Positions 2,064 to 58,675 of a DNA stretch of 64,000 nt are shown here, in pieces; within the stretch, counting starts at the first letter, position 1, and each line of letters opens with the position of its first letter. This DNA is from Oscillospiraceae bacterium. GTDB lineage: Bacteria; Bacillota; Clostridia; Oscillospirales; JAAYXM01. The translations under genes were made by a program, and so were the position numbers. Location of the stretch: assembly GCA_017439555.1 (NCBI GenBank), contig JAFSIZ010000007.1, positions 8,187 through 72,186 of the forward strand. Reading direction: 5' to 3'. The notes under the pieces were generated by a model. The model made no database searches and was not told the origin of the DNA. It saw nothing but the letters and a program-made list of their open reading frames with translations.

Positions 2064-2064
2064 C

Positions 2065-3543
2065 TTAACCCTCCTGTTTTCCGAAAAATTCTCCTATTCT
2101 TGCGCAGGTCTCCTCTATCTTCTGCTCTGCATTATTGTATTCATATGGGTATTTGGGATTGAATATACGTTCAATCGCCCCTATGCGGCGATTTATAAGC
2201 TTTGTAACTCCTCCTGCACCTGCCGACAGAATTGTGTGGAGCTCATCCATAATATAATTGTTATACGCGCTTTCACAGCCCGGCTTTGAATATCCGACAT
2301 TCTCAAGATTGCCCGACATATATTTCTGACGATAGAGATAATACGGAAAATATCCCGAATCTCCAAGTGCCCCCATCGCATATTCAACCATCCGCTCTGT
2401 CTGCTCACCGTCAGGCAAGATATAGTTTTCTCGATGAAGCTCCGAGCCTTTTTTTATCGCAAGCGTGTGAACGGTTATATTTTCCGGAGAAAGCCCGATC
2501 ATACGGTCAACCGAATTTTTAAAGCTTTCAAAGTTATCTCCCGGAAGCCCTGCGATAAGATCTGTATTTATGAGAAGCCCACCTGTGCGCCTTACATCAG
2601 CTATCGCACGGACAACATCCTCCGCCGTGTGGCGTCTGTCCATTTCAGCAAGAATCTTATCGTTCATCGTCTGCGGATTGACGCTTATCCGAGTCGCCCC
2701 TCCGCTTCGTATCACGCGGATTTTTTCAACAGACAACGTATCCGGGCGGCCTCCTTCAACAGTATATTCCTCTGCATCGGAAACATTGAAATTTCTTGCT
2801 ATGCAATCCATAACAAAAGCAAGCTCTTCTGCCGAAAGAGCAGTCGGCGTACCGCCTCCGATATATATAGAACGAAGCGAAAGCCCAGCTTCTCCTGCAG
2901 CTCTGCCAAGGCCCTCAAGCTCGCGTTCAAGCATTCTGAGATATGGCCCGACAAGATTTCTCGCCTTTTCGATAGAATGGCTCACGAACGAGCAATATCT
3001 GCAACGGGATGCACAAAACGGTATGCCGACATACAGCGACATATCGCGCACATCCGTGCTCTCTGCCATATTCTCGGCGCGGACTGCACATCTTGCCGCA
3101 AGAGCAGCTCTTTCCGGTGATACGAAATAGTCCTCACACATCGCAGCTGCGGCTTCCTTCTCGGAAAATCCGTCTTTTATGTATTTTGCAGCCACCTTTG
3201 ACGGGCGTATGCCCGTCAGCGCTCCCCATGCAGGTGTTTTGGGGAGAAATTCAAGGCTTGCACGATAAAATGAGGTCTTTATCGCACGCTTTGAGGCTCT
3301 TTTCTTCTCCTCATCATCACCGCCGGGTATCGGGAAGATAGCTTCGGCACAGCTTTTTTTATCACCGAGATATATCTCGGTTTCGGAAACAAAGCTACCC
3401 GTCTCTTCCTTCAGCGATGAAATTATATAATCGCCGCCATCAGGCTTTTCCGCCACAAACTCCGCGTGGGAATTCGGGAACATACACATATATATCTGCT
3501 GTGCGGCAAACTCGAAATCATGACCTTTCAAATAGAGCTTCAC
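2065..3543 (-). CDS. hemZ: Radical SAM coproporphyrinogen-dehydrogenase-like protein (HemZ type)
   Basis: 492 aa. Radical SAM CxxxCxxC motif in GIPFCASRCRYCSF. GTG start overlaps the upstream stop (GTGA). Confidence 0.75.
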   Translation of the reverse strand: MKLYLKGHDFEFAAQQIYMCMFPNSHAEFVAEKPDGGDYIISSLKEETGSFVSETEIYLGDKKSCAEAIFPIPGGDDEEKKRASKRAIKTSFYRASLEFLPKTPAWGALTGIRPSKVAAKYIKDGFSEKEAAAAMCEDYFVSPERAALAARCAVRAENMAESTDVRDMSLYVGIPFCASRCRYCSFVSHSIEKARNLVGPYLRMLERELEGLGRAAGEAGLSLRSIYIGGGTPTALSAEELAFVMDCIARNFNVSDAEEYTVEGGRPDTLSVEKIRVIRSGGATRISVNPQTMNDKILAEMDRRHTAEDVVRAIADVRRTGGLLINTDLIAGLPGDNFESFKNSVDRMIGLSPENITVHTLAIKKGSELHRENYILPDGEQTERMVEYAMGALGDSGYFPYYLYRQKYMSGNLENVGYSKPGCESAYNNYIMDELHTILSAGAGGVTKLINRRIGAIERIFNPKYPYEYNNAEQKIEETCARIGEFFGKQEG

Positions 3544-4169
3544 TGTCTCATCGCCTCTGCCATATATGGGTTATATACACGCTCGTGTGAAAGCGTGGTT
3601 GCCTGCTCGTGTCCGGGAAGAACTCTATAGTCGCCGGGAAGCTCATAGAGCTTTTTCAACGAGCGGAGCATTTCTTCATAGTCGCCTCCTGCAAGGTCAC
3701 ACCTTCCGCACGTTCCTGCAAACAAAGTATCTCCGGAGAACATCGTATCCTCACAGATTATACACATACTTCCCTCTGTGTGACCCGGAGTTGTTATAAA
3801 CTCAAAATGCATCTCTCCTGCATCTATCGCACCGGACCCGACGATCTCGATATCCGCATAGAGCGGAATAAAGTCACGGCGGCGCAAAGCAGTCTGCCCC
3901 GAAAGCTCTGCATCGCGCATACGCGCTCTTTCTCCGACATTGGCCACAAGCTTTGCTCCAGTTTTCTTTATGATATCATCAACAGCAAGCACGTGGTCAA
4001 AATGTGCGTGAGTCAGAAATATATGCTTTATTTCGACACCGAGCTCTTCTGCTTTTCCGATTATCAGCTCTGCATTTGCACCCGGATCTATCACAACAGC
4101 GACCTTGCCATCGTGTACGAGGTAGCAATTTGTGTTTATAAAGCCCACAACGAGAGTTTCTATCTTCAT
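3540..4169 (-). CDS. MBL-fold metallo-hydrolase (hydroxyacylglutathione hydrolase-like)
   Basis: THAHFDH metal motif. 209 aa. ATG overlaps the dtd stop. Confidence 0.8.
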   Translation of the reverse strand: MKIETLVVGFINTNCYLVHDGKVAVVIDPGANAELIIGKAEELGVEIKHIFLTHAHFDHVLAVDDIIKKTGAKLVANVGERARMRDAELSGQTALRRRDFIPLYADIEIVGSGAIDAGEMHFEFITTPGHTEGSMCIICEDTMFSGDTLFAGTCGRCDLAGGDYEEMLRSLKKLYELPGDYRVLPGHEQATTLSHERVYNPYMAEAMRQ

Positions 4170-4633
4170 TATTTTTCTGCCTTTCCGAATACATCCTCTG
4201 TATCCATAACAATGGTAACCGGCCCATCGTTTATTGATTCAAGCTCCATATATGCCCCGAAGACTCCGGTTTCCGTCTTATAGCCTGCATCGCGCAGAAG
4301 CGCTGTGAAATATTCATAGAGCGGCCGCGCAAGCTCAGGCCGCGCCGCATCAATGAAGCTCGGACGGTTGCCCTTCTGCGTGTTGGCATAGAGCGTGAAG
4401 TTTGATACCACCATCATCGAGCCGTTTACCTGTGAACAGGAGAGATTGAGTTTTTCTTCCGAATCCTCAAAAATTCTCATCTGGGTTATCTTTCTCGCAA
4501 GATATTCTGCATCTGCTGTGGAATCATTTACAGATACCCCAAGAAGAATGAGAAGCCCCTTTCCTATTTTTGAATGTGTCACACCGTCTATCTTGACTTC
4601 CGCTGATTTGACTCGCGTTATAACTGCTCTCAC
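4169..4633 (-). CDS. dtd: D-aminoacyl-tRNA deacylase
   Basis: MRAVITRV... and SNFTLYANTQKGNRPSF are typical Dtd motifs. GTG start with GGAGGGG RBS. Conserved position after relA. Confidence 0.85.
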   Translation of the reverse strand: MRAVITRVKSAEVKIDGVTHSKIGKGLLILLGVSVNDSTADAEYLARKITQMRIFEDSEEKLNLSCSQVNGSMMVVSNFTLYANTQKGNRPSFIDAARPELARPLYEYFTALLRDAGYKTETGVFGAYMELESINDGPVTIVMDTEDVFGKAEK

Positions 4634-4659
4634 GTTTTCCCCTCCAAAAGGTGTCTTTT

Positions 4660-6837
4660 TTAGCTGAATGAGCGCTTGACGTCTATCACTCCGGCAACGC
4701 CGTGAAGCTTGTTCATAACATATTCAAGCTGCTCTTTGCCGTTTGTATTCATAACGATATTGACAACGGCATAGCCGTCGCCCAGGCGACGTGCATCAAG
4801 CTGATGCACAGGTATTTTCAAATTGTTGAGCACCGCCGCAACATCCATAACAAGACCGTTTCGGTCCTTCGCGGAAATCTGAAGCGAGGTCTGGAATTTG
4901 TCCTTGACATCGTCTGCCCACGACACGGCGATCCAGCGCGTCAGGTCGTTTGCATCCTTCATCGCATTTTCGACGTTCTGGCAATCCGAGCGGTGAACGG
5001 AAACGCCATAGCCGCGTGTTATGAATCCGATAATCGAATCTCCCGGAATCGGCGTGCAGCAACGTGCAAACTTGACGAGGCAATTTTCAACCCCCGGAAC
5101 GATTACGCCGGAATTTGATGTTTTCGGCTTTGGTGCCGCCGCGATTTTCTCCTGCACCTCTGCGTCTGCATCGGGTGGAGGAGGCGCATTTTTTGCAAGC
5201 TCTGCACGGATGCGATTGACAACACGGCTGATTTTCGTGCCGCCATATCCGAGGCTTGCATAAAGCTCATCAACCTTTGAGAATGACATCCTGCCCGACA
5301 CTGTGGCAACAACCGCCTGAACAGCTTCATCGGAAAGGTTTATGTCCTCGCGCTTGAGCTCACGCTCAAGCTCTGTTCTTCCGCGCAGAATGTTTTCCTC
5401 ACGGCATTCTTTTTTGAACCACTGTTTTATTTTATTGCGGGCTTCTCCTGTTTTGACTATCTTTATCCAGTCACGGCTTGGCCCTTTTCCTGAATTCGAA
5501 GTCAATACCTCGACAATCTCGCCGTTCTGGAGCTTGTAATCAAGCTGAACCATACGGTTGTTTACCTTGGCTCCGACCATACGGTTTCCGACAGCAGAAT
5601 GTATCGAATATGCAAAGTCGATAGGCGTTGAGCCGGCAGGCAGGCTTATAACGTCGCCGTTTGGCGTAAATACGAAAACCTCATCGCTGAACATATCCGT
5701 CTTGAGAGAGGTTATGAAGTCTTCGTCTTCTACCTCCTGGTTTTCAAGAAGCTGGCGCACCCAGGCAAGCTTTTCTTCGAGATTGCTCTTGCTGACGCCT
5801 GATTTATATTTCCAGTGTGCGGCAATACCGTATTCCGCCGTCTGATGCATATCGTGAGTCCTGATCTGCACCTCGAACGGGATACCCTCACGCCCGATGA
5901 CCGTTGTGTGGAGCGACTGATACATATTGGGCTTCGGCGTGCTTATATAGTCCTTGAAGCGCCCCGGCACCGGATGATACATATCGTGGATGAAGCCGAG
6001 GACATTATAGCAATCGGCAACGGTATCGACAATAACACGCATAGCATAGAGATCGTATACCTCGTCTATCGTCTTGTGCTGGGTATACATCTTGCGGTAG
6101 ATGCTGTATATGTGCTTAACTCTGCTCTGCAGCGATGCACTTATCCCTGCTTCTTCAAGCCTTGCGACAAGAGATTCCTTTATATGCTCAAGAAACTCAT
6201 CACGCTCGCGGCTTCTCTTCTCAAGCTCTTCTGTGATCTCAGCATATCCGACAGGGTCAAGGCAACGCAACGAGCGGTCTTCAAGCTCCCATTTCACCTT
6301 CTGCATACCGAGGCGATGCGCAAGCGGTGCATATACCTCCATCGTCTCAAGAGCCTTTTCGCGCTGTTTCTCAGGCTTGTGGAATTCTATCGTGCGCATA
6401 TTGTGAAGCCTGTCTGCAATCTTTATGAGGATAACGCGGATGTCCTTGCCCATATAGAGGAACATCTTGCGCAGGTTTTCCATCTGCGCCTCTTCCTTGC
6501 TTGTATAGGGCATTCTCGTCAGCTTTGATACACCCTCGACAATATCGGCAACCTCTTTGCCGAATTTTGATTTGATCTTGTCATAGCCATAGTCTGTGTC
6601 TTCGATGCAATCGTGCAGAAGAGCCGATACAACGGAATCTGTGTCGAGTTCCATATCCGCAACAATCTCCGCCACGGCAATCGGATGTGTGACATAATCG
6701 CTGCCGTCGCGCCGTTTCTGCCCTTCATGTGCAGCCGTTGCAAGATCATATGCATCGTGAATGCGCTGCTCGTCTGCATGGGGCATATATCCTTTTATTT
6801 TACCTATCAGTTCGTAATATTTTGATTCAGGCATCAT
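4660..6837 (-). CDS. relA: Bifunctional (p)ppGpp synthetase/hydrolase (RelA/SpoT family)
   Basis: 725 aa. HD hydrolase region (HPIAVAEIV...LLHDCIEDT), synthetase region (YRSLHTTV-like QSLHTTVIG), TGS and ACT C-terminal parts. Confidence 0.92.
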   Translation of the reverse strand: MMPESKYYELIGKIKGYMPHADEQRIHDAYDLATAAHEGQKRRDGSDYVTHPIAVAEIVADMELDTDSVVSALLHDCIEDTDYGYDKIKSKFGKEVADIVEGVSKLTRMPYTSKEEAQMENLRKMFLYMGKDIRVILIKIADRLHNMRTIEFHKPEKQREKALETMEVYAPLAHRLGMQKVKWELEDRSLRCLDPVGYAEITEELEKRSRERDEFLEHIKESLVARLEEAGISASLQSRVKHIYSIYRKMYTQHKTIDEVYDLYAMRVIVDTVADCYNVLGFIHDMYHPVPGRFKDYISTPKPNMYQSLHTTVIGREGIPFEVQIRTHDMHQTAEYGIAAHWKYKSGVSKSNLEEKLAWVRQLLENQEVEDEDFITSLKTDMFSDEVFVFTPNGDVISLPAGSTPIDFAYSIHSAVGNRMVGAKVNNRMVQLDYKLQNGEIVEVLTSNSGKGPSRDWIKIVKTGEARNKIKQWFKKECREENILRGRTELERELKREDINLSDEAVQAVVATVSGRMSFSKVDELYASLGYGGTKISRVVNRIRAELAKNAPPPPDADAEVQEKIAAAPKPKTSNSGVIVPGVENCLVKFARCCTPIPGDSIIGFITRGYGVSVHRSDCQNVENAMKDANDLTRWIAVSWADDVKDKFQTSLQISAKDRNGLVMDVAAVLNNLKIPVHQLDARRLGDGYAVVNIVMNTNGKEQLEYVMNKLHGVAGVIDVKRSFS

Positions 6838-6846
6838 AGACCATCA

Positions 6847-8883
6847 TCAACTCCCACAACTTTTAAATAGTTTATATGTTCTCGAATCATTGAGATCGAC
6901 CTTATTATTATGATCTGCAATCTTTATGTCCACTCTGTAATCTCTGCAATCATAGCCCATAAGACCAACCTCTGAGAAAATCTGAAATGCAACCAGAAGC
7001 TTTGAAAGCGTTATGGTTCGGCTCGCGGCAAACAACCTGCGCTTGACCTCAAGAAGCGGCGCCGAAACCGGGAAATCCGCACGGGTAATCATCCTCCAGA
7101 TTTTCCCGAGCTCCTCATAGCTTATCTCAACACCCTCGCTCGCCTTTCCCTCAACGGCATTCGCAAGGCATTCATATGCAGCGCCGAACTCCGCTATATC
7201 CGCTTCACAGGGGCGCGCATCCTTTATATGGAGCTGCACATTCTCACCGAGGAAATTGTTTATTTCCGGAGTGAATACAATATCTATATAATCTCCCTCC
7301 GAAAACGGAAGCGTTTCTGCGCGCTTCCCGAAATATACACACTGAAAAACGCCTGCGTGCTCTATCTGCAGCTTTGTGTGGCGGTTATTTCCTATCGGCA
7401 CAATCCGCGCAACCTTGCACTTGTCAAGCCTGAGCTTCGGCGCCTCATTGTCCTTTCCATAGGGCTCCATCGCTCGAAGCGCATGGAGCTGTGCAATCGT
7501 GAGTTCAGAGGCTGCTGCCCTGAAATCGACATCAAGCATCGGGACGTAATCGCGCATATCCGCATACATCTCTTCGTTCATACGGCGGCGAAATTCCGCG
7601 ATATTCTCTCGCTTTATGACAATACCTGCTGCAAGATCGTGCCCTCCGAATTTTTCAAGCAGATCAGAGCATCTTCCGAGAGCGGAATGAAGGCTGACGC
7701 CCTCAACACTTCTTCCCGAGCCTCGGCACTCCCCATCCTCCACAGATATAAGTATTGTCGGTTTTCCGAACATATTGCATATTCTCGATGCAACGATGCC
7801 GAGCACGCCATGATGCCATCCGTCGCCGTCAATGACGATTGCGCTTGCGTCTTTATATTCCGGATGCGCTTCTATAACAGCAAGCGCCTCTTTCATTATA
7901 TTTCCTTCGCATTGCTGGCGCTCCTTGTTCTTTCCATCCAGCTCGCTCGCAAGCTCCTTTGCATTGTCTTCATCCGCGAACAACAGACGAAGAGACAGCT
8001 CTGCGCTTCCCATTCTTCCTGCCGCATTCATACGCGGGCCGACAAGAAAGCCTATTGCACCTGCTGTCAGCGGTTCGCCTTTTTTCGATCCAGCCTGATC
8101 AAGCAGCGCTGTTATACCTGTCTCTCTGCGCTCATCTATAAGCTTCAAGCCGTTTGCAACGATTATTCTGTTCTCATCTGCTATAGGCATAACATCGGCA
8201 ACCGTTCCTATGCAGACATACGGCAGATATTTGTTCATTATTTCAAGATTGCTTCCGCTCATAGCGCACACAAGCTTGAATGCAACGCCAACCCCGGCAA
8301 GCGCCTTGAAGGGATATCCGCAATCACTTCTGTTTGGATTTACAACCGCACACGCCTCCGGAAGCTCTTCACAGCATTTGTGGTGATCGGTTATGACAAG
8401 ATCCAGCCCGAGCTCCTTTGCATATCGCGCTTCTTCCACAGCCGTAATCCCGGTGTCAACCGTTATCACAAGCTTCACCCCCTGAGCACAGAGCGAATCG
8501 AGCGCTCCGCGTGACACGCCATAGCCGTCTCCGAATCTGTCAGGGATGTGATATATACAGTCAACCCCGAGAGAGCGGAGAAAATGCACGAGTATATATG
8601 TAGATGTAACACCATCTGCATCATAGTCGCCATAGACGGCAATCTTCTCATTTGACATTATCGCCTCAGAAATGCGCTCCACTGCCTTTTGCATATCGCA
8701 CATAAGAAACGGGTCGTAAAGATCAGACAGGTTCTTTTTCGTAAACCTCTCCGCCTCACGCGCCGAGGTTATTCCTCTCACTGCAAGAAGCTTTGCTGTG
8801 AGCGACGGAACACCCAGCGCTTCCATAAGCTCACGGACTGTATTTTCGTCGTATTCTCCTGTTATCCATTTTGTGTTTTTCAT
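6847..8883 (-). CDS. recJ: Single-stranded-DNA-specific exonuclease RecJ
   Basis: 678 aa. DHH-family motifs (YGDYDADGVTS, VITDHH). Conserved recJ-relA adjacency. Confidence 0.9.
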   Translation of the reverse strand: MKNTKWITGEYDENTVRELMEALGVPSLTAKLLAVRGITSAREAERFTKKNLSDLYDPFLMCDMQKAVERISEAIMSNEKIAVYGDYDADGVTSTYILVHFLRSLGVDCIYHIPDRFGDGYGVSRGALDSLCAQGVKLVITVDTGITAVEEARYAKELGLDLVITDHHKCCEELPEACAVVNPNRSDCGYPFKALAGVGVAFKLVCAMSGSNLEIMNKYLPYVCIGTVADVMPIADENRIIVANGLKLIDERRETGITALLDQAGSKKGEPLTAGAIGFLVGPRMNAAGRMGSAELSLRLLFADEDNAKELASELDGKNKERQQCEGNIMKEALAVIEAHPEYKDASAIVIDGDGWHHGVLGIVASRICNMFGKPTILISVEDGECRGSGRSVEGVSLHSALGRCSDLLEKFGGHDLAAGIVIKRENIAEFRRRMNEEMYADMRDYVPMLDVDFRAAASELTIAQLHALRAMEPYGKDNEAPKLRLDKCKVARIVPIGNNRHTKLQIEHAGVFQCVYFGKRAETLPFSEGDYIDIVFTPEINNFLGENVQLHIKDARPCEADIAEFGAAYECLANAVEGKASEGVEISYEELGKIWRMITRADFPVSAPLLEVKRRLFAASRTITLSKLLVAFQIFSEVGLMGYDCRDYRVDIKIADHNNKVDLNDSRTYKLFKSCGS

Positions 8884-9883: not shown

Positions 9884-9946
9884 CACAAAGACTTTGTTGT
9901 GTTATCCTTACAGCAATATCAAAATAATATTTATAAGGTGAAAAAT

Positions 9947-10789
9947 ATGAGAATTGCTATTATGACTGATATGGAAGGCGTTGCAGGAGTTGTAAACTTC
10001 AAGGACTGGATTTTTCCCGAAAGCAAATATTACGAACAGGGAAAAGCCCTTCTGACAGAAGAGGTCAACGCGGCTATCCGCGGTTTTTTCGATGCAGGAG
10101 CAACAGAATGCTTCGTCATTGACGGCCACGGCCACGGCGCGATAGACGTATCTCTCCTTGACGAGCGTGCTCTCTATTCCCGAGGATGGGGAATCTATCA
10201 CGAATTCGGCCTCAGCGAGGGCTGGGATGCCATCGCATGGGTAGGTCAGCACGCAAAATCGGGAACTAAGCTCTCCCATCTGACACATACAGGCGATCCA
10301 AAGGTGCTCGAGGTCAGGATAAACGGCATCTCTGTCGGCGAATACGGGCAATGCCTGTTTATCGCAGGTGCATATGGCACACCTGTCATCTTTGCCTCCG
10401 GAGAGAGAGCTTTCTGCGAGGAAGCACGTGAGCTTGCACCCTTTGTCCACACCGCTGAAACGAAATACGGAGTAACGCTCGATGACGGCCGCGATTGCTC
10501 CTCGGAGGAATATTGGGAGCACAATCTCGGCGCTGTACATGTTCATCCAAATGTTGCAAGAGCCCGTATATATGAGGGAGCAAAGGCCGCACTTGAGGAA
10601 TATATAGCAGATCCCGGGAAATTTGAGCCAATCTGCCCCGAGCCGCCGTTTATCCGCGAATGCTGGGTACGCGCATCAGCTGACAAGCCTGCCCACAAGG
10701 ATACACGCCGCCACGACAGCGACATTCTCAAAATGTTTGCCGCAAAGCCCGAAATTCTGAACGAAGGCGAATATTCGCTTCCCGACTGA
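9947..10789 (+). CDS. M55-family D-aminopeptidase (DppA-like)
   Basis: MRIAIMTDMEGVAGV N-terminus is typical of peptidase M55. ATG 9947 is preceded by AAGGTG. The track's upstream extension lacks an RBS. Confidence 0.75.
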   Translation: MRIAIMTDMEGVAGVVNFKDWIFPESKYYEQGKALLTEEVNAAIRGFFDAGATECFVIDGHGHGAIDVSLLDERALYSRGWGIYHEFGLSEGWDAIAWVGQHAKSGTKLSHLTHTGDPKVLEVRINGISVGEYGQCLFIAGAYGTPVIFASGERAFCEEARELAPFVHTAETKYGVTLDDGRDCSSEEYWEHNLGAVHVHPNVARARIYEGAKAALEEYIADPGKFEPICPEPPFIRECWVRASADKPAHKDTRRHDSDILKMFAAKPEILNEGEYSLPD

Positions 10790-48040: not shown

Positions 48041-48739
48041 TCAGATATTTACTGTCGCGATATGGGGTCTGTGATCGGAGGCGACAATTTCAGGGATATC
48101 TGCCGAAACAACCTCCACATCAGGACTTACAAAAAGATAATCAATTTTCCGCTGAGGATTATCCGAGGGAAAGCTCAGCAAAGGTTTATCAAAGCAGTCT
48201 GCAGTGTCCTTCATTCTCGCTCTTATGGGATTTAAAACCTCATTTTCCGGAACAACATTGAAATCGCCCATGAGAATACATTTTTCATCCTCGAGATTTT
48301 CCACCACAGTCTCCACTGCGTTTTTCTGCTCATCGGGATTTAATCCAAAATGAATTACCAGAACAGTTACTCCACCTTCAAGCTTTGCCTTGAGCAAGCA
48401 ACGTGTTTCATATGTTCCACCTTCTGTTCTTGATTCAGGATCGGGAACAGGGGTTGTTTCTGCGCTCAGTATCGGAAGCTTTGAAAGAAGCGCATTTCCG
48501 TATGAATACTTATCATTGACAACTATTGCTCCGGGAAAATAATGATGCTTAAGCTCTGTCAACTCAGAAAGAATGGCTGCCTGGTTATCATATTCGCTTG
48601 CCGGTGCGCTGTTACGCATTTCATTGAGTCCCACAATATCGGGGTTCACCTTCTTTATTGCATCTGCCATAATCTGATAATCTATTTTCTGCTCAATAAA
48701 ATTAAGACAATGCTGGGTGTTAAAAGACATAATCTTCAT
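48041..48739 (-). CDS. Endonuclease/exonuclease/phosphatase (EEP) family protein
   Basis: MSFNTQH..., LNEM, GDFN and SDHRP catalytic blocks. 232 aa. Confidence 0.8.
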   Translation of the reverse strand: MKIMSFNTQHCLNFIEQKIDYQIMADAIKKVNPDIVGLNEMRNSAPASEYDNQAAILSELTELKHHYFPGAIVVNDKYSYGNALLSKLPILSAETTPVPDPESRTEGGTYETRCLLKAKLEGGVTVLVIHFGLNPDEQKNAVETVVENLEDEKCILMGDFNVVPENEVLNPIRARMKDTADCFDKPLLSFPSDNPQRKIDYLFVSPDVEVVSADIPEIVASDHRPHIATVNI

Positions 48740-48771: not shown

Positions 48772-49695
48772 TTATAATTTGGGCAATGCTCTTATTGCCG
48801 ATTTAAAATCCTCCAAAGTATTCGCCTTTCGTATTGCCTTGATAAGCTTTTTCTCCTCAGGGAAGTTACGACCGGCATATATCCATATTTCCTTCAGCTT
48901 ATGCAAGGTGAAAACATCAGAGCCGAGAACCTTTCTGTATTTCTCCGAAAGTCTCTCGGAAAACTCCACAAGCTCTTCGGTCGAAAGCCTCTCTCCACCT
49001 CGGATTTCTCTGAAAAGCGCAGGATTCATAACAGCCCCTCTGCCGAGCATCACACCTGAAACATCCGGGAACTGCTCTGAAATCTTTTCATAATCCTTCA
49101 CCATACAGATATCTCCGTTATAGCAAAGGGGATTTTTTGATATATTATATGCAAAAGCAAAGCTTTCAAGACTTGCACTTCCGTTATAGAGCTCTTCCCT
49201 TGTTCTCGGATGAACGGTAAGCTCAGAAACAGGATAGCGGTTATAGATTTCCATAAGGCGCGCAAACTCATCGTGAACCGAATATCCGACGCGCGTTTTG
49301 ACGGAAATTTTCATATCACTTTCCGAAAATATTTTATGAAAGAATTCATCCATCGCATCCGGATATTGCAGAAAGCCGGAGCCTCTGCCCTTTCGCACAA
49401 CAGTGCCTGCAGGGCATCCGATGTTGATGTTGATTTCATAATATCCAAGCGACTTTATTTTTTCGCAGAATTTCAAAAAGGATTCTGCATTTGAGGTAAG
49501 CACCTGTACTTTGAGCTTTTCTGTGGTATCATTTTCGGGAAGAATATCACGCATCCCCTTGCGGCTCACCTTTTCAAGGTCGCTCGGATTTATAAAAGGC
49601 GCAAAATACGCATCCACGCCTCCGAACATTTCGGCGTGAGTGTTTCTGAAGGTATATGTGGTTATCCCCTCGAGCGGAGCAAAATAAAGCTTCAT
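48772..49695 (-). CDS. tRNA-dihydrouridine synthase family protein
   Basis: YFAPLEGITTYTFR N-terminus, TIM-barrel Dus pattern, NIGCPAGTVVRKGRGSG. Confidence 0.75.
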   Translation of the reverse strand: MKLYFAPLEGITTYTFRNTHAEMFGGVDAYFAPFINPSDLEKVSRKGMRDILPENDTTEKLKVQVLTSNAESFLKFCEKIKSLGYYEININIGCPAGTVVRKGRGSGFLQYPDAMDEFFHKIFSESDMKISVKTRVGYSVHDEFARLMEIYNRYPVSELTVHPRTREELYNGSASLESFAFAYNISKNPLCYNGDICMVKDYEKISEQFPDVSGVMLGRGAVMNPALFREIRGGERLSTEELVEFSERLSEKYRKVLGSDVFTLHKLKEIWIYAGRNFPEEKKLIKAIRKANTLEDFKSAIRALPKL

Positions 49696-50228
49696 TTATT
49701 CCCTCTTCTTATGTAGTATACAGTGTCAATTCCCGGTCCTCTGTCATCTTTAAGGGTTGCATAAAGCTCGAAACCGTGTTTTTCAAGCACGTGGAGATGG
49801 GCAGCATTGCCCGACCAGGTTCTTGTCGCAACATTCTTTCCGGGATTTTCATCGATTATCGCCTGATAAAACCGCTGCATAGCGCCGTGACCGCGACATT
49901 CCGGAGTTACTATTGCAGTGCTTGCATACTCAGCAACAAAGCTTTCATATCCCTCAACATCGACAACGTGGTCCGGTATGTATGACATAAAACCTACTAT
50001 TTTCCGATCAAGAAGTGCAAGCACGAATTTATAGTTCAGTATTTCATTGAAATATACTACAGGTCCTTCTTCGTTAAGCTCGAGTATTCCGCTCGGTATC
50101 TTTTTGAATGCGCTGTTTCTCGCAGAAAGAGGTGGGATAAACTCGCGGTCATAAGCCTTGAGAAGCTCCCATATCCCCTTTTTCTGTTCCTCATCAAGCA
50201 CATCCACGGAAACGATTTCCAATTCCAT
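49692..50228 (-). CDS. GNAT-family N-acetyltransferase
   Basis: Acetyl-CoA loop VTPECRGHGAMQRFY. ATGA overlap with the dus start. Confidence 0.75.
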   Translation of the reverse strand: MELEIVSVDVLDEEQKKGIWELLKAYDREFIPPLSARNSAFKKIPSGILELNEEGPVVYFNEILNYKFVLALLDRKIVGFMSYIPDHVVDVEGYESFVAEYASTAIVTPECRGHGAMQRFYQAIIDENPGKNVATRTWSGNAAHLHVLEKHGFELYATLKDDRGPGIDTVYYIRRGNK

Positions 50229-50243
50229 ATTGCTTCCTCCATT

Positions 50244-50813
50244 CTATGCAATAGCTTTTTGTTTTTTCAGAAGTCTTTCAATTCTCGGTCGGTTATATCG
50301 CTGAATAACGATGAACTGCGCATCAAAAAGCATCGCCGCAAATGCGGTTATAGCGAATATCCAAAGCTCACCCCACAACAGCGCAAACAAAAGCGTGGTA
50401 AGCGATATGAGCTCGTTTATCCAGTGATCGCATTCCGCCTTTGACATTGTATTCGCGACTTCTTCGAGCGAATAGTCGCGCAGTGAGAAAAGCTCGGGGT
50501 TATATGTCAGCGCCTTGTCCTTCCATTTTTTCACGCGAAGCAGTTCATAGAGCCGCTTTTCAAACGGAAGCGGACGGAACCATCTTTGCGTATGCTTTAT
50601 TTTGAAAAGCTTTGTGACGTTGCCCATAATGAGGCGAAGCCATAGGTGATACATCGCAGTGAAGCAGGTCACACCTATCCACAAGACTGCTCCGTTTTTT
50701 GTTATATTGCCATAATAGAGCGTAAATGTGACCGCCGCCGTTATTGCACACACGGCAATCACGCAATACATAAATATCGCAGGCCCGCTCGGCCTTGTCT
50801 TTTTCATATTCAT
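50244..50813 (-). CDS. CrtO-like membrane acyltransferase family protein (glycosyl-4,4'-diaponeurosporenoate acyltransferase family)
   Basis: VKKWKDK and IVIQRYNRPRIERLL closely echo S. aureus CrtO as I recall it. 4 TM. Confidence 0.55.
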   Translation of the reverse strand: MNMKKTRPSGPAIFMYCVIAVCAITAAVTFTLYYGNITKNGAVLWIGVTCFTAMYHLWLRLIMGNVTKLFKIKHTQRWFRPLPFEKRLYELLRVKKWKDKALTYNPELFSLRDYSLEEVANTMSKAECDHWINELISLTTLLFALLWGELWIFAITAFAAMLFDAQFIVIQRYNRPRIERLLKKQKAIA

Positions 50814-52036: not shown

Positions 52037-52570
52037 TTACATTATATTCTGTATTATCATCTCAAAAAGACCGGCAGGCATCAAAAAAGTATATGGTGCC
52101 GTTACTATTGAAAGAACAAGTGCCAATTTCTTTTGAATTTCTTCCGGAATGTCCGTTTTTGAAAAACTGTGCTTTTTGTTGAATCGATATATATAATATC
52201 CCGCAACCGCGATTCCCAAAGCGGTTATTATAAATGCAAAAACATTACCAAACGGATTGTAATCCACATTCAATCTTATATCATTAAGATAACTTATGTC
52301 GAAAATTTCTGTGGCAATCGTCAGAAGCGTGCTTGAAACAAAAATAAATGCCACACCGATCAAGTCTGCGAGGAAACCATATCCCCACACCTTCCAAATC
52401 GTCTTTTTATGCTTCTTTATGATTTCGTTTGCATTAAGTTTCCATGCCGTTATAATCACTACCAATGAATCGATTATCAAATTCAACACTGCCGCAACGA
52501 TCACAAACGGCGGCAATAACCACATCAGCCAAAAAGGAAAAATCAGATTATACAGTCTGCCTTTTTTCAT
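52037..52570 (-). CDS. Hypothetical membrane protein
   Basis: 177 aa, 4-5 hydrophobic helices, AAGAGG RBS, AT-rich. No family recognised. Confidence 0.55.
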   Translation of the reverse strand: MKKGRLYNLIFPFWLMWLLPPFVIVAAVLNLIIDSLVVIITAWKLNANEIIKKHKKTIWKVWGYGFLADLIGVAFIFVSSTLLTIATEIFDISYLNDIRLNVDYNPFGNVFAFIITALGIAVAGYYIYRFNKKHSFSKTDIPEEIQKKLALVLSIVTAPYTFLMPAGLFEMIIQNIM

Positions 52571-52582
52571 AACAACAACCTC

Positions 52583-53455
52583 TTACACTTTCTTTTTGTC
52601 ACTTAACTGAATGAATATACCGAGGACGATTACGCCGAGACCGAGAAGTGAATTGATGTTGAATGGCTCACGAAGGACAAGAGTTGTCCACACAAGCGAG
52701 AGAAACGGCGTTATGTAGGCAAGATTGGAAATTTTTGCCGTGTCGCCGATTTTCAATGCGATTGCCCAGAAGGTAAATGCGATTGCATTCGTGAATATTC
52801 CCATCCACGCAAGCCCCGCCGTCTGCACGAGATCAAGGCGAATGCTTCCTTTTGTCGCGATGATATAGATGAGACCGACAACCGTCGCCGCAAAATAGAA
52901 TATCATCATACTGAAATATTTGTCATAGTCAACCTTTTTATTGAGCGAGGAGAATAGTCCGTAGGACACGGCGGCGATGACGCAGAATGCCGCACCCGTC
53001 AACGTATCCTTTCCGATTGCGAGAAGATTTCCGTTTGCCGTCACGATGATGACACCTGCAAACGAGAGAAGAATTGCAACCGTCTTTCGCGCCGTCATCT
53101 TTTCGCCGAGCAGGAAGCACGCCGACACGACCGACATTATCGGCCAGAGGTAGTTTATAATAAACGCCTGCGATGCGTCCATACGGTCGATTCCCATATA
53201 GAGGAACAGATGGTATATGAATATGCCGAGAATCCCTATCCCCGACATTTTGAGATAGTCGAGCGGCTTGAAGCTCTTAAAAAGCTTCATATTACCCTTG
53301 AAAATGTTTGTGATAAGCAGATAAAGAAATGCAAAGCAGGAGCTTAGAAAAGTTATCTGCATACTGTCAAGGCTTCCGAGCAAAAGCTTAGAAATTGTCG
53401 CAATGGTTGACCAGCAAAGTATGGCAAACCCTGCATATATGTATTCTTTTTTCAT
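52583..53455 (-). CDS. EamA/DMT-family transporter
   Basis: 10-TM duplicated EamA pattern. ATG 53455 is preceded by AAGGAG; the track's 24-aa extension was rejected. Confidence 0.8.
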   Translation of the reverse strand: MKKEYIYAGFAILCWSTIATISKLLLGSLDSMQITFLSSCFAFLYLLITNIFKGNMKLFKSFKPLDYLKMSGIGILGIFIYHLFLYMGIDRMDASQAFIINYLWPIMSVVSACFLLGEKMTARKTVAILLSFAGVIIVTANGNLLAIGKDTLTGAAFCVIAAVSYGLFSSLNKKVDYDKYFSMMIFYFAATVVGLIYIIATKGSIRLDLVQTAGLAWMGIFTNAIAFTFWAIALKIGDTAKISNLAYITPFLSLVWTTLVLREPFNINSLLGLGVIVLGIFIQLSDKKKV

Positions 53456-53468
53456 TGGTATTCTCCTT
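53384..53468. repeat. Direct repeat copy A (85 bp): RBS + first 24 codons of the intact EamA gene
   Basis: Identical base-for-base to 54853-54937 by manual alignment. Confidence 0.95.
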
Positions 53469-53554: not shown

Positions 53555-54766
53555 CTATTCTGCAATCAGATAAATCATTTTATCATCAAAACAAATGCTT
53601 GCTGTATGATTATAAATTTGAATCATATCTTCCATCCTATCTATAAATACACGCGTTTCCGGATTGCTTATTTCAGCAAACGCAGCAATTACACTCATTT
53701 CAATCTCTTTTGCATTTGATTCTATATTATTGCCGCTATCTGCCAAAAATTCATCGACTTTACCTTCCTTTACAAAAGGAATGCTCCCAATGAGTTTTCC
53801 GACAGCTTTGCTTGCAGTTCCAATTCCTTTAAGTATATTTGTTTCAACAGAGACTTCGCTTATTTTTTCAAGATGAATCGAGCATTTATCAAACAAATCT
53901 CTATATGCCGAGGAGAGATTTTCGATTTCTTTTCTGATTCCAGCAATATATTCTTCATCGAAATTACCACTCAGCATAATTTCCATCATAGATGCCATCG
54001 AAAATATATACAAAGAAAGTCTGTAATATTTAAACTTTTTCAGCAGCTCCTCAAGTGTTGATTTCACCCGACTTTGTACTACTACAAACTTCTTTGAGCC
54101 GAGCATCTCCACAACCTTTTTCTGATAAACGTTTATATTCTTGCGTGCAGTTCTTTGAATATCCAACACCAACTTGTGATTACTTGCTACGAAATGCGCA
54201 TTGTCCCAATTCAGCTTATACTTTGAAATGATGTTACATAGCGTTTCAACATCCGCTTCTATTTCAGATTCTTTTTCGATTTCCAAGAAGGAAAGTATTC
54301 GCTTCTGCATTTTTTCGATTTCACCAAGCTTCTGTTCAATCGAGAATAACGCAACAGCCATCATCATTGTCGCCGGATTAATTGCAGCTACAGACTGCGT
54401 TGTTGCAGACAAAGGTTCAGCAGGCTGTAGCTGTACGGCCTTTGATGTACCATCTGCCTTTTTTAGCCATCCCCATAAATTACCGTTTTTAGCAACTTTC
54501 AACGTATCCGTAGCCGCTTTATTTGCTACTCTATAAAGACCAGATGTATTTATAATTGTAGTTTGCGTAACAGTTCTGAGGGCTGGAATCAATGACGAAA
54601 CACCTGCACCAAGTGTAGCCAACTCCGCAATAGGAATACTTAATGTTTTCTGTTCTGAAATCTCTCTACGAGCTTCAAATAACAACCCATCAGCTATTTC
54701 TAATATACTTTTGTCTACTTCCGGCTGTGTAAGTTGTGGATCAGGTATCTCAATAATTTCTGTCAT
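53555..54766 (-). CDS. Hypothetical 403-aa protein, cargo of the repeat-flanked insert
   Basis: Uninterrupted ORF. GGGAGGGGA RBS is best spaced for ATG 54766. Predicted mostly helical with two hydrophobic stretches. No domain recognised. Confidence 0.7.
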   Translation of the reverse strand: MTEIIEIPDPQLTQPEVDKSILEIADGLLFEARREISEQKTLSIPIAELATLGAGVSSLIPALRTVTQTTIINTSGLYRVANKAATDTLKVAKNGNLWGWLKKADGTSKAVQLQPAEPLSATTQSVAAINPATMMMAVALFSIEQKLGEIEKMQKRILSFLEIEKESEIEADVETLCNIISKYKLNWDNAHFVASNHKLVLDIQRTARKNINVYQKKVVEMLGSKKFVVVQSRVKSTLEELLKKFKYYRLSLYIFSMASMMEIMLSGNFDEEYIAGIRKEIENLSSAYRDLFDKCSIHLEKISEVSVETNILKGIGTASKAVGKLIGSIPFVKEGKVDEFLADSGNNIESNAKEIEMSVIAAFAEISNPETRVFIDRMEDMIQIYNHTASICFDDKMIYLIAE

Positions 54767-54828
54767 AAACATTCCCCTCCCAAAGTACGTTTCACTATAA
54801 TCTATCTATTCATTCCGATAGAACAGTA

Positions 54829-54924
54829 TCAACCTCTTGTCTTGCGTTTCAGAAGCTTAGAAATTGTCGCAATGGTTGACCAGCAAAGTATGGCAAACCC
54901 TGCATATATGTATTCTTTTTTCAT
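54829..54924 (-). pseudogene. Duplicated 5' fragment of the EamA gene (31 codons, then stop)
   Basis: MKKEYIYAGFAILCWSTIATISKL is identical to the real N-terminus, then diverges (LKRKTRG, stop). It keeps the AAGGAG RBS. Confidence 0.8.
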
Positions 54925-54937
54925 TGGTATTCTCCTT
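54853..54937. repeat. Direct repeat copy B (85 bp)
   Basis: Identical to 53384-53468. Three further bases match with one mismatch (cag vs caa). Confidence 0.95.
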
Positions 54938-54972: not shown

Positions 54973-55860
54973 TCATCCTTCCTGTCCTATTGCCAACACA
55001 AAAGGCGAAGAGTAGTCCACATCTCCAACGGCAAACGATGTGATGCCCAAGCTACCTTCAAACGGAGCTTCAAAGTTTCCGTGAGATACTCCGCTGATAG
55101 CTCCATCCTTTGTCAGCGCATACACAGAGTATCCGAAATTCCCGTCAAGGCGCTTTGTCGGCAACGAAGCTTCTCCGCATGAAACACCTTTGATTTTCCC
55201 GGTTCTGTATTCCGACACTGTTCCGTCGCGATGGACAAGATACAGCTCCTCACATTCGCTTCCAGTCGGGAAAACATCAACAATATCGGAAAAATCATCA
55301 AGATTTTTATATTTTTCTCTGCAGTTTGCACCTGCACACAAAACTTTTCCTTCTTCGGTTATTCCGAATATGGAGTTCTGCGTCCCCGTGACGATCCGTC
55401 TAATTTCCTTCCATGACAAAACCTCGCTGTAATCCTTGCGGCAATAATCACCAAGCGCGGCATAATGAACATTCCCGTCACCGTCAAGCGCAAAGAGAGA
55501 ATCAGATGCTTCTACCTGCACAATATTTTTCCATTCCTTGACAGCGGCGTTCAGAGCTTCAAAAAAAGTTCCCGTGACTTCACACATAAAACGCGCCGCA
55601 CGCTTTGCAATAAGGCAGGTTCCGTCCTCAACAAGACCTATAGCCAATCCATCCGCCCACTTGCTTATCGAAATTTGATTTACTCTCGTCCAATATTCGG
55701 TTCTTGCCGCCTTTGATTCGTCTTTTATTTTCTGCAATACAGCCCCATCGTCGGTAATTGCCATTATACAGCCTGTACCTGCATAAACACTTTTTATAGG
55801 AAACTTTTCCCAATCACTCATATCAAAAGGCATATTGGATGTATAAAGAAGTTTTTTCAT
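54973..55860 (-). CDS. RCC1-like beta-propeller repeat protein
   Basis: Six to seven repeats of the pattern hydrophobic-A/G-x-G-...-L-x-x-DG-x-V (AITDDGAVL, LVEDGTCL, ALDGDGNV, GITEEGKVL, VHRDGTV, ALTKDGAI). No signal peptide. Confidence 0.55.
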   Translation of the reverse strand: MKKLLYTSNMPFDMSDWEKFPIKSVYAGTGCIMAITDDGAVLQKIKDESKAARTEYWTRVNQISISKWADGLAIGLVEDGTCLIAKRAARFMCEVTGTFFEALNAAVKEWKNIVQVEASDSLFALDGDGNVHYAALGDYCRKDYSEVLSWKEIRRIVTGTQNSIFGITEEGKVLCAGANCREKYKNLDDFSDIVDVFPTGSECEELYLVHRDGTVSEYRTGKIKGVSCGEASLPTKRLDGNFGYSVYALTKDGAISGVSHGNFEAPFEGSLGITSFAVGDVDYSSPFVLAIGQEG

Positions 55861-55875
55861 ATTCGTCTCCCATCT

Positions 55876-56862
55876 CTACTCCGCAATAACCGGGTTGCCG
55901 CCGGCATCAAGAGTTATAAGCTTCATATCAGGTCTTGCCCCTGTTATTTCCCCGAGATCTCCACAACAGCTTGTAAATGAATTATATACATAATCCGCAG
56001 AAAAGACAAAGTTCTCAGCATTTTTAACACCTTCGCTTGTCAGCCATCCGTCATTTTTTGCGACAAGCTCTTCTATACCTTCGAGGCAGACGCAGGAAAT
56101 TCCGCGATATCCTTCTCCATTCTGAAAGCGGCCTTTCACGTTTGAATCTATATTGAACGATTGCAGGTCTTCGCTGAAGAAAATATGCTGCTTCTGCCAG
56201 AAAAGATTTTCGTCCCCATAGGATAAGTAATCCTCGTGCTTAAAAAAGCAATAGGGTGAATGTCCATGGATGATGCAGGCGCGATTTTTCAGAAGCTCCG
56301 CCTCATCCGGCCAGCTGTGCCAATATGATTTCTGCGAATACAATCCGTTTCTCGACCACATAATCTGTCTGAGCGGCGCATCATATTGAACGCACACATC
56401 ATCAAGCTTATATGAGAAAACAGCCTGCTGCGGATTTTTCGCCATATCCTTGTTTATAAGCTCAAAGGCTTTCGAAACCATCCCGGCGTGGACGATATAA
56501 TAGTTCAGAAGCTTTCCGCGGATAACTATAATGTCCGGGAGGTTTTCCAATGTATAGGTCGGATTCAATTCCCTTTCGTGATTTCCCCTGATCATATGAA
56601 ATCCTGCAGCGTCACAATCGGCTTCATAATATGTTGCCATATAACGAAGCAGCTGCTGCACATAACCGCCTGCGTTGTAGTCTCCGACAAAATATATATG
56701 ATCCTTTTCCGGGTCAAATTTGATTTTTTCCATCAGTGCCTGAAGCGTTGCCACCTCGCCATGGGTGTCGCCGACAACAAATCTGAGTCCGTCAGGATAG
56801 CGGCTTCGCAAAGCATCGATGTTATCATCGTCTTTTACAACTATTCTTTTATTTATATCCAC
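55876..56862 (-). CDS. PPP-family (calcineurin-like) metallophosphatase
   Basis: VVGDTHGE, VGDYNAGG (variant motif II), RGNHE, VHAG, HGH. GTG start 9 nt after GGAG. Confidence 0.8.
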   Translation of the reverse strand: MDINKRIVVKDDDNIDALRSRYPDGLRFVVGDTHGEVATLQALMEKIKFDPEKDHIYFVGDYNAGGYVQQLLRYMATYYEADCDAAGFHMIRGNHERELNPTYTLENLPDIIVIRGKLLNYYIVHAGMVSKAFELINKDMAKNPQQAVFSYKLDDVCVQYDAPLRQIMWSRNGLYSQKSYWHSWPDEAELLKNRACIIHGHSPYCFFKHEDYLSYGDENLFWQKQHIFFSEDLQSFNIDSNVKGRFQNGEGYRGISCVCLEGIEELVAKNDGWLTSEGVKNAENFVFSADYVYNSFTSCCGDLGEITGARPDMKLITLDAGGNPVIAE

Positions 56863-56907
56863 AATAAATTTCTCCTGTTTCTGCCGGAGTCTTCGCGACT
56901 TAATATG

Positions 56908-57303
56908 TTATTTCTTTTCTAATTTCCATATGGCGTTTGATGTATGATAAGTATGTGTGGACACATCATCCAATATGAAAATATGCGAATTGGGTTTCTC
57001 GCTGTTTCCATCCCAACGCTGCAGATCAAGATAAAAGCCGATTATTATGTCCTCGTCAAAAATGGCTTCCGACAAATCCAATGTGTGAACATCAATCACA
57101 TATTCCGTTCTGTCACAACCTCCATCAGTGTCTGCCAATACGGTAACCTCGTGTTCTACAGTCATCCGCCACATATCCGATACCTTTTTCAGTATTCTTT
57201 CATGATTTGTTGTTGTATGATAATCCGAAAAAAAGCATCGCTTATCATCTATTATTATTGCGCCCGGTATCATTTTTTTACTCAAGTTATAATGTTTACC
57301 CAC
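56908..57303 (-). CDS. Hypothetical 131-aa protein
   Basis: ORF with AAGGAG upstream of GTG 57303. AT-rich (21/60 GC in the sampled line). No domain recognised. Confidence 0.5.
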   Translation of the reverse strand: MGKHYNLSKKMIPGAIIIDDKRCFFSDYHTTTNHERILKKVSDMWRMTVEHEVTVLADTDGGCDRTEYVIDVHTLDLSEAIFDEDIIIGFYLDLQRWDGNSEKPNSHIFILDDVSTHTYHTSNAIWKLEKK

Positions 57304-57334: not shown

Positions 57335-58675
57335 TTACAGTTTCGGTCGTGATAACAGAACAACAGTCTCAACATGTTTCGTTCTCGGAAACATATCGAC
57401 AGGCTGGACAGAGACCGTCTTATAGCTTCCGTCCTCTTCAAAAACCTTCAGGTCGCGTGCCAAAGTTGCCGGATCGCAGGAGACATATACAACCGTTTCG
57501 GGCGACATTTTCTTGATTTCCGCGATCACTTCAGGGGAAAGCCCTTTTCGCGGCGGATCAACGACGATTGCATCGGGCTTTTCTCCTCGGTTTGCGAGAA
57601 GTGCCGCCGCTTCTCCTGCATCTGCGCAGATAAACTCTGCGTTTGTTATTCCGTTAAGCTCTGCATTTTTCTTTGCATCCTCAATCGCCTGCGGCACTAC
57701 CTCGACACCGATTACACGCTCGGCACGTTTTGCGAGGCTCAGTGTTATCGTTCCGATTCCGCAATAGAGGTCGAGAATATATTTTGCGCCATTCTCAAGC
57801 GCAAGCCCTGTTGCAATGTCATAGAGCTTTTCCGTCTGCGCGTGGTTTACCTGATAAAACGCGGCAGGTGAAATCGAAAATTCAATGCCGCAGAGCGTGT
57901 CGCGAAGCGTTTTATCTCCCCAGAGCGTTATATATTTATCGCCGAGGATTACGTTGGTGTTTTTGCTGTTGATATTGAAAATAATGCCACAAACCTCCGG
58001 GCATTTCTCTCTGATGCTTTCAACAAGCTTGTCCGTATTTTTCGGAGCTTTTGTCACAACAAGCGTAAGCAATGCGCCACCAACACCGTTTCTGACATAT
58101 ATATGGCGCAAAATTCCGGCGCCGCTCTTTTCGTCATATGATGTGACCGCACACATTTTCTGCCACCCGTGTACAACAGCGCGGATTCTGTCGGCCAGCT
58201 CGCTCTGAATGAGACAGCTCTCCGATGGCACTATATCGTGACTTCTCGGGCGATAGAAGCCGCTTACACAATCCTTCCCGACAGGAAACTGCGCCTTATT
58301 GCGATAGCGCAACGTGTTTTCCGAGCCGATTATCGGAAGCACAGGCGCCGAAACCTTTGCTATCCTCTCAATACAGGAACGGACGTGCTCTTCCTTGACG
58401 GAAAGCTCCTCATCATATGACATATGCCACATCGTGCAGCCGCCGCATTTTGGATAGTATTCACACTGAGACTCGATTCTCTCCGCAGATTTCTCTATAA
58501 CGCGAATAAGCTTTGCATATGCAAAGCTTTTTTCGACCTTCAATATCATTATTTCACACGTCTCTCCGCGAAGAGCCTGCGGAACAAACACCGCCATTCC
58601 ATCAATCCGCGCAATTCCTGCACCCTCAGAGGTATAGCCTGTGATTTCCACAATATGTATATTTCCCTTTTTCAT
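57335..58675 (-). CDS. rlmD: 23S rRNA (uracil-5-)-methyltransferase RlmD/RumA
   Basis: N-terminal TRAM, Fe-S Cys cluster (CEYYPKCGGC), SAM-binding DLYCGIGT, C-terminal catalytic YVSCDP. Confidence 0.9.
   Translation of the reverse strand: MKKGNIHIVEITGYTSEGAGIARIDGMAVFVPQALRGETCEIMILKVEKSFAYAKLIRVIEKSAERIESQCEYYPKCGGCTMWHMSYDEELSVKEEHVRSCIERIAKVSAPVLPIIGSENTLRYRNKAQFPVGKDCVSGFYRPRSHDIVPSESCLIQSELADRIRAVVHGWQKMCAVTSYDEKSGAGILRHIYVRNGVGGALLTLVVTKAPKNTDKLVESIREKCPEVCGIIFNINSKNTNVILGDKYITLWGDKTLRDTLCGIEFSISPAAFYQVNHAQTEKLYDIATGLALENGAKYILDLYCGIGTITLSLAKRAERVIGVEVVPQAIEDAKKNAELNGITNAEFICADAGEAAALLANRGEKPDAIVVDPPRKGLSPEVIAEIKKMSPETVVYVSCDPATLARDLKVFEEDGSYKTVSVQPVDMFPRTKHVETVVLLSRPKL

Follow-up and report, generated by a model that had tools for sequence, protein, structure and literature searches.

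ApaH, encoded by the last gene of the rsmA(ksgA)-apaG-apaH series in Escherichia coli, is a dinucleoside-polyphosphate hydrolase of the PPP family that also removes Np4 caps from RNA. Canonical motif II of PPP enzymes reads GDxxDRG, and the arginine of this motif binds phosphate. A second kind of protein, the short-bladed propeller, is exemplified by BLIP-II, a secreted protein that inhibits beta-lactamases. At the level of genome organization, the 3' end of rumA, the gene for a 23S rRNA uracil-5-methyltransferase, is a hotspot in streptococci for integrative and conjugative elements (ICEs), which insert by means of a serine integrase (PMC5633684). Here we analyze a stretch of 64,000 nucleotides (nt) from an Oscillospiraceae bacterium (assembly GCA_017439555.1, contig JAFSIZ010000007.1, positions 8,187 to 72,186; hereafter the window), in which three genes that we call g1, g2 and g3 lie immediately 3' of rlmD and encode, respectively, a rare small protein, a predicted PPP-fold phosphoesterase and a predicted seven-bladed propeller. 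We find that the stretch between rlmD and a downstream gene for an EamA-family transporter is a variable slot, and we judge it probable (about 0.72) that g1, g2 and g3 are independent cargo at the tail of an operon and not one system, with single genes being gained, lost and replaced in the slot.

The three open reading frames (ORFs) follow a yqfC-yqfD-phoH-ybeY-dgkA-rlmD run on the same strand, which rlmD closes, and they are followed in turn by a further gene, g4, and by the EamA transporter gene (Table 1). Their coordinates, and the gaps of 31 nt from rlmD to g1, 45 nt from g1 to g2 and 15 nt from g2 to g3, agree exactly with those of a preliminary description of this DNA, made from the sequence alone, which had proposed that the genes might belong together. 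Ratios of nonsynonymous to synonymous divergence (dN/dS), calculated against orthologs, were 0.09-0.15 for g1, 0.17 for g3 and 0.10 for rlmD, with synonymous divergence saturated for g2. Such purifying selection argues that g1 and g3 are real genes, as do the confident structure models of g2 and g3, and on these sequence measures all three are real, functional genes. No 19-residue window in any of the three proteins reaches transmembrane-like hydropathy. The ribosome-binding site of g1, AAGGAG, is placed 11 nt before its start codon. Promoter-like sites showed no excess (13 seen, 13.8 expected from shuffled controls), and terminator-like sites a slight one (10 seen, 5.6 ± 2.1 in shuffles), although none of these fell inside the gaps between these genes. 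The combination of short gaps, separate ribosome-binding sites and no convincing terminator or promoter suggests that g1, g2 and g3, arranged head-to-tail at the operon tail, would be transcribed by read-through from the operon.

Evidence that the slot is variable comes from close relatives of the window. By blastn, the region as a whole is 99.4-99.8% identical between the window and a sibling strain, L003 (GCA_045544915.1), in which 1103 extra base pairs (bp; L003:6857-7959, corresponding to window 56904-56906) come just past the stop codon of g1, 41 nt ahead of the start of g2. This insert encodes a protein of 354 amino acids (aa), composed of an N-terminal domain of about 210 aa that has no annotation and a C-terminal TIR_2 domain (E 3e-19), with weak PADLOC matches to ThsB and other TIR models. 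No flanking repeat is present in the sequences of its junctions. A second difference concerns g4, which the preliminary description had presented as a repeat-flanked cargo gene. The repeat is indeed real: two direct copies, matching at 99% over 88 nt and exactly over 85 nt, bound a 1469-bp unit that carries g4. The unit is present in the window, L001 and L002, and is absent from L003 and from L096, a member of the sister species, which likewise has the repeat only once. L003 has a single repeat copy (9926-10010) and no g4, and its g3 flank runs straight into the EamA gene, so that it represents an empty site for g4. The GC content of g4 is 0.369, and at third codon positions (GC3) it reaches 0.315, as against a GC3 of 0.57 for the EamA gene; no family in the libraries scanned matched g4. 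Under the model that we propose, the slot would change via single-gene insertions and deletions, the TIR gene of L003 being one instance, and recombination between the 85-bp repeat copies could delete the g4 unit again.

In the sister species (L096-L099), rlmD is followed by a 63-aa ORF, g2 (75% identity), g3 (78%) and the EamA gene, with neither g1 nor g4. The earlier suggestion of a variable hotspot is thus borne out, both by the TIR insertion and missing g4 of L003 and by the 63-aa ORF that the sister species has for g1. Downstream of the EamA gene, the window also holds Exo_endo_phos, GNAT, CrtO-like and 177-aa genes (48041-48739, 49692-50813 and 52037-52570) that are absent in the sister species, which reads EamA-MFS-Dus-Flavodoxin_5, indicating that gene turnover extends beyond the stretch considered here.

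Independence of the three genes is supported by their distribution. On the g2 side, one genome per GTDB species was scanned, which yielded 22 further species with a g2 ortholog (L008-L029; 46-66% identity), from Lawsonibacter, Acutalibacteraceae, Lachnospiraceae, Solobacterium, Ruminococcus and others. Searches with hidden Markov models (HMMs) of every ORF of at least 60 aa within 8 kb detected g1 or g3 near g2 in none of these species (0/22). The neighbors of g2 in this sample were ordinary and varied, being housekeeping genes in most genomes, and none recurred when a greedy gene call was clustered; this gene call missed the rlmD-like gene of the high-GC locus L008. The g3-side sample consisted of 13 loci outside the genus, and an HMM recovered the g3 ORF at 12 of them. 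None of the 12 contained g2, and no neighbor was common to any two loci. In one genome, JAIKWY01, about 100 kb separates homologs of g2 and g3 that share a contig. Loci with g1 elsewhere hold neither g2 nor g3, and unrelated genes lie downstream of g1. The combination of g1 with g2 exists only in this species, and g2 and g3 are kept together at the site only in the sister species, where their synteny is no more than expected from common descent alone, given that EamA, MFS and Dus are syntenic as well. The proposal of a single functional unit consequently fails, since the families do not co-occur outside the genus. Nor did the suggestion of a defense system find support in PADLOC-DB v2, in which no family matched g1, g2, g3 or g4 at E up to 0.1.

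Several observations weigh against independent cargo at an operon tail, and the first is that the neighborhood sample is small: the g2 loci represent 24 clusters out of more than 200, and the g3 loci about 15 out of 69. The gap between g2 and g3 is kept at 15-17 nt across two species whose proteins are 75-78% identical, and such kept spacing makes a lineage-specific functional pairing possible. At three of the 24 independent loci (L003, L012 and L028), TIR_2 genes confirmed by Pfam are found no more than about 2.5 kb from g2, and an ad-hoc TIR HMM detected no TIR gene in about 225 kb of other loci. TIR genes near g2 would on these sequence counts be commoner than expected by chance, which in so small a sample is not statistically secure and serves as a lead only; beyond the TIR domain itself, the three TIR proteins show no relationship. 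Finally, g2 follows rlmD-like genes in 3/24 lineages and prmA, the gene for ribosomal protein L11 methyltransferase, in 2/24. It stands directly after the rlmD-like gene in L008 (6231-8635, with a 21-nt gap) and L010 (6775-8984), and after prmA in L024 (1607-4160) and L029 (6425-8999, with one gene between), the other 19 of the 24 loci having no upstream methyltransferase gene. The recurrence of both g1 and g2 beside genes for ribosome-modifying methyltransferases could mean a functional link with RlmD and not a passive slot.

One of the TIR-bearing loci deserves separate description. In L028, an island (171-7302) holds four TIR_2 genes, a GNAT gene and a gene for a 677-aa TPR protein around the g2 homolog. 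This homolog has lost its C-terminus and a segment with the conserved histidine of an HAGM motif, and is for that reason probably a pseudogene.

The third gene, g3, had been described as a cytoplasmic RCC1-like propeller, and structure prediction agrees. Its AlphaFold2 (AF2) model (mean predicted local distance difference test, pLDDT, 92.8; predicted TM-score 0.91) has seven strand groups forming a 7-bladed propeller, with blades of about 40 residues and two helical insertions between blades. The Pfam models of RCC1 type (RCC1, RCC1_2 and WD40_RLD) stay below threshold on g3, at 16.9 bits against 150 and 13.1 against 22. The best match in the PDB by Foldseek is BLIP-II (3qhy_B; E 1.8e-10, TM-score 0.64-0.69), and the RCC1-like domains of HERC2, RCC1 and UVR8 come next. 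No secretion signal is apparent, the protein having no hydrophobic N-terminal segment (maximum 19-residue hydropathy, KD19, 1.12). The family comprises 69 clusters, whose names point only to metagenome-assembled genomes of Oscillospiraceae, and its invariant motifs are VSDxxFAL and GSECE. By its predicted fold, g3 is most likely a cytoplasmic protein-binding scaffold.

Two loci illustrate how much the strings of genes that g3 homologs close elsewhere differ. In L005 (868-7900), the g3 homolog closes a string of genes encoding a MORN-repeat protein, a coiled-coil protein, an AAA+ protein (a weak bpMoxR match) and a 717-aa protein with no annotation. In L007 (5135-13569), a TPR gene overlaps the start of g3, and genes for an 880-aa protein with no annotation and a 1166-aa Tubulin_2 protein follow. 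We considered assigning g3 to a MoxR-vWA-propeller system and rejected this, as the 717-aa protein of L005 has no vWA match and the pattern is not repeated at other loci.

The structural match with an enzyme-inhibiting protein lends itself to the idea that g2 and g3 form a lineage-specific pair, in which the propeller would bind, regulate or inhibit the phosphoesterase in the way that BLIP-II acts on beta-lactamases. Adjacency and spacing kept in both species, along with purifying selection on g3, would fit such a pair. However, no locus sampled outside the genus has the two genes side by side; they lie far apart on the JAIKWY01 contig and, in the sister species, share their synteny with genes further downstream, and we consider a dedicated pair unlikely.

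The calcineurin-like phosphatase assignment of g2, made earlier on the strength of its GDTHG, RGNHE and HGH motifs, is upheld by a match to Pfam Metallophos (PF00149) with E 6.7e-13 and 49.9 bits, well above the cut-off of 21.5, which places g2 among calcineurin-like/PPP proteins. The motifs are located at residues 31-35 (GDTHG), 60-66 (GDYNAGG), 92-96 (RGNHE) and 199-201 (HGH), and the metal-ligand positions D32, H34, D61, N94, H95, H125, H199 and H201 are conserved. In an alignment of 28 family members, GDxHG, GD, GNHE, H125 and HGH are invariant. The preliminary description had also noted that motif II deviates from GDxxDRG, which is correct, although the deviation is not peculiar to g2: across the 28 members the motif reads GDYN[AGE]GG, keeping G60-D61 and missing the canonical Asp-Arg. 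With the phosphate-binding Asp-Arg replaced throughout the family, a substrate other than a classical phosphoprotein is to be expected, and most likely g2 acts on a different, nucleotide-type phosphoester. The family contains more than 200 clusters of proteins of about 328 aa, at 55-67% identity, and has its own conserved C-terminal third.

The AF2 model of g2 (pLDDT 90.5) recovers 3icf, 1g5b and 9oly as top Foldseek matches, each with probability 1.00 and TM-scores of 0.4-0.5, and PP5/Ppt1, lambda phosphatase and ApaH match it about equally. At the sequence level, solved structures and E. coli ApaH resemble g2 in motifs I-III only. The best curated NCBIfam matches are ApaH equivalogs (E 4e-9), with scores far below the cut-offs for equivalog status (PRK00166, 36 bits against 176; TIGR00668, 29 bits against 223), and g2 likewise falls far below the PrpA/B equivalog cut-offs. 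From sequence and model together, g2 is predicted to be a stand-alone binuclear (Mn/Fe-type) PPP-fold phosphoesterase, representing a family of gut and rumen Clostridia. In some of its orthologs, which measure about 480-540 aa, a DUF1810 domain stands at the N-terminus (L012:3325-4770, L018, L022:7542-8981 and L024:2586-4160). As a functional clue this domain was set aside: it is the same as the Rv1873 family (PDB 2jek), for which no function is known, and a literature search yielded nothing of use.

For g1, the description as a protein with no recognizable domain and AT-rich coding sequence holds: no match was found in Pfam, NCBIfam or PADLOC, and the GC content is 0.376. The family is exceptionally small, with 7 clusters in an indexed search of 5.8 billion proteins and 11 representatives in a full HMMER scan of 1.84 billion, and its alignments share a conserved hallmark motif, T-x-x-A-D-[TS]-D-G-G-C-D-R. 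Of the 5 lineages whose context was usable, 4 have g1 located 3' of a TRAM/U5-methyltransferase (rlmD-like) gene. Between such genomes the g1 proteins are 55-80% identical, while the adjacent rlmD-like methyltransferases reach merely 34-41%, and nucleotide homology of g1 to two of these loci, L088 and L091, ends within 20 bp of the ORF. To judge from these comparisons, g1 resembles a one-gene unit that has come to lie, time and again, 3' of TRAM/U5-methyltransferase genes. Either it may be transferred horizontally, each time arriving at a similar site, or it may adjoin different rlmD-like paralogs in related genomes.

In L091, the region 3' of g1 (2377-3791) encodes a 366-aa fusion of a nucleotidyltransferase (CTP_transf_like) with NADAR, followed by a 103-aa NADAR/gp30.3-like fragment; both genes are NAD/ADP-ribose-related. 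Two candidate identities for g1 were rejected. One was a 2H phosphoesterase, whose two HxT motifs are not invariant in close g1 orthologs and are missing in distant ones; a single ortholog, P0076, matches tRNA_lig_CPD exactly at the cut-off of 23.0 bits. The other was an ApaG/DUF525 homolog, for which the hhalign probability was 0.4% and no Pfam match was obtained.

The latter comparison bears on a reading by analogy, in which rlmD-g1-g2 would be the functional counterpart of rsmA-apaG-apaH and g2 would hydrolyze Np4N or Np4-capped RNA. The gene order matches that of E. coli K-12, where ApaG has 125 aa; ApaH is prominent among both the curated family matches and the fold matches of g2; g2 is found after rlmD-like genes and prmA at L008, L010, L024 and L029; and g1 recurs 3' of rlmD-like genes. 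Yet g1 is unrelated to ApaG, the hhalign alignment of g2 with ApaH extends over only 71 N-terminal columns, which correspond to the generic PPP motifs I-III, and the family score is far short of the equivalog cut-off. The meeting of g1 and g2 in this species alone, and the majority of g2 loci that have no upstream methyltransferase gene, argue in the same direction, making a functional counterpart improbable.

We also weighed the reading that the stretch is a decayed mobile element, integrated site-specifically at the rlmD 3' end as streptococcal ICEs are at rumA. Besides the documented hotspot itself, the far greater similarity of g1 (71-80%) than of the adjacent rlmD-like genes (40%) between genomes would fit horizontal movement to the same type of site, and g1 and g4 are poorer in GC. 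Against this, the genes called between rlmD and the flavodoxin gene include no recombinase, no att-like repeat of the rlmD 3' end lies downstream (the sole 12-mer match being a single chance hit), and the window contains neither a tRNA gene nor an Rfam family. Insertions and deletions at the site, moreover, are those of single genes and not of element-sized blocks, and we give this reading little credence. Cargo of a phage or plasmid was rejected on the viral-contig and plasmid scans. Viral contigs held no relative of g1, g3 or g4, and for g2 only distant NinI-like phage phosphatases (33-42% identity over motifs I-III), in keeping with PHROGs, where g2 matched only a generic NinI-like phosphatase family; no plasmid homologs of g2 were found.

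A further and rather speculative reading we hold to be unlikely. The rlmD-like 3' flank in gut and rumen Clostridia might be a recombinase-independent cargo slot with g1 as its recurrent marker, in which conflict genes centered on nucleotides and NAD, namely TIR NADases, NMNAT-NADAR and g2, are swapped as single-gene cassettes, and g2 might hydrolyze a TIR-derived or other signaling nucleotide. This would explain the TIR genes near g2 and the TIR insertion beside g2 in L003. The proposal that g1-g2-g3, with or without g4 or a TIR gene, constitutes a new multi-gene anti-phage defense or conflict system, with g2 as effector or signal-degrading enzyme and g3 as sensor, could appeal to the common strand and tight spacing of the three genes, to the TIR gene inside the cluster in the sibling strain, to the several TIR genes around the degraded g2 of L028 and to the want of annotation for two of the three proteins, but it is close to refuted by the absence of co-occurrence on both the g2 and the g3 side, by a sister species that keeps g2-g3 without g1, by the lack of a PADLOC-DB match for any of the proteins, by the mostly housekeeping neighbors of g2 and by the absence of any TIR gene from the window itself.

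Table 1. Features between rlmD and the EamA transporter gene in the window, and arrangement of g1 orthologs at other loci (positions of the latter refer to the locus named).
Feature	Position	Strand	Description
rlmD	57335..58675	-	Pfam TRAM and tRNA_U5-meth_tr; last conserved gene of the run, anchors the variable stretch; 84% aa identity to sister species L096
g1	56908..57303	-	131 aa, GTG start; soluble, very rare family
g1-g2 spacer	56863..56907	-	45 nt; site of the 1103-bp TIR_2-gene segment in strain L003
g2	55876..56862	-	328 aa, GTG start; predicted PPP-type binuclear metallophosphoesterase
g3	54973..55860	-	295 aa; predicted cytoplasmic 7-bladed RCC1/BLIP-II-like beta-propeller
Upstream direct-repeat copy	54850..54937		EamA ribosome-binding site and first 24 codons; ends here as a 31-aa truncated ORF
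g4	53555..54772	-	405 aa, AT-rich, no family match; within the 1469-bp unit
Downstream direct-repeat copy	53381..53468		Authentic 5' end of the complete EamA gene
EamA-family transporter	52583..53455	-	290 aa from the conserved ATG; Pfam EamA E 6e-36; 94% aa identity in L096; conserved far boundary
g1 in L088	7001-7396		rlmD-like, DUF6273, g1, convergent histidine kinase gene
g1 in L091	1919-2284		rlmD-like, g1, NMNAT-NADAR fusion
g1 in L093			g1, then a 255-aa protein with no annotation
g1 in L191	2004-2393		rlmD-like, two small unannotated genes, g1

Strains more than 99% identical provide here a clear natural case of genes being gained and lost singly at the end of an operon. Two well-populated uncharacterized families, a PPP phosphoesterase with an altered motif and a cytoplasmic BLIP-II-like propeller, gain confident structure models, and the occurrence of g1 beside rlmD-like genes across lineages points to a site preference or to a link with rRNA methylation. 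A new three-gene system would have mattered; recognizing that the genes are probably independent saves the effort of following them up as one.

With lambda phosphatase/NinI, PP5/Ppt1 and ApaH, g2 shares the fold, the predicted binuclear metal site, the GDxHG, GD and GNHE motifs and the later histidine ligands, whereas its sequence likeness to PPP enzymes is limited to motifs I-III with TM-scores of 0.4-0.5, its motif II is without Asp-Arg and its C-terminal third is its own. Similarly, g3 shares the seven short-bladed propeller fold of BLIP-II and of the RCC1-like proteins HERC2, RCC1 and UVR8, but at 12-14% identity; unlike secreted BLIP-II it has no signal peptide, and it has helical insertions and invariant motifs of its own. 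With Thoeris/TIR defense the resemblance resides in the TIR_2 gene in the g1-g2 spacer of L003; the window has no TIR gene, and no partner of ThsA type (SIR2, Macro or SLOG) accompanies it. The E. coli rsmA-apaG-apaH series (L196) presents the same order of an rRNA methyltransferase, a small protein of about 130 aa and a PPP phosphoesterase; the differences are that g1 is not ApaG, that the match between g2 and ApaH is generic and that g1-g2 is limited to this species. The streptococcal rumA hotspot likewise has accessory DNA immediately 3' of a 23S rRNA uracil-5-methyltransferase gene, as is the case here from 31 nt after rlmD. The difference from that hotspot is that the stretch at rlmD has no integrase, att repeats or conjugation genes, and that its cargo changes gene by gene.

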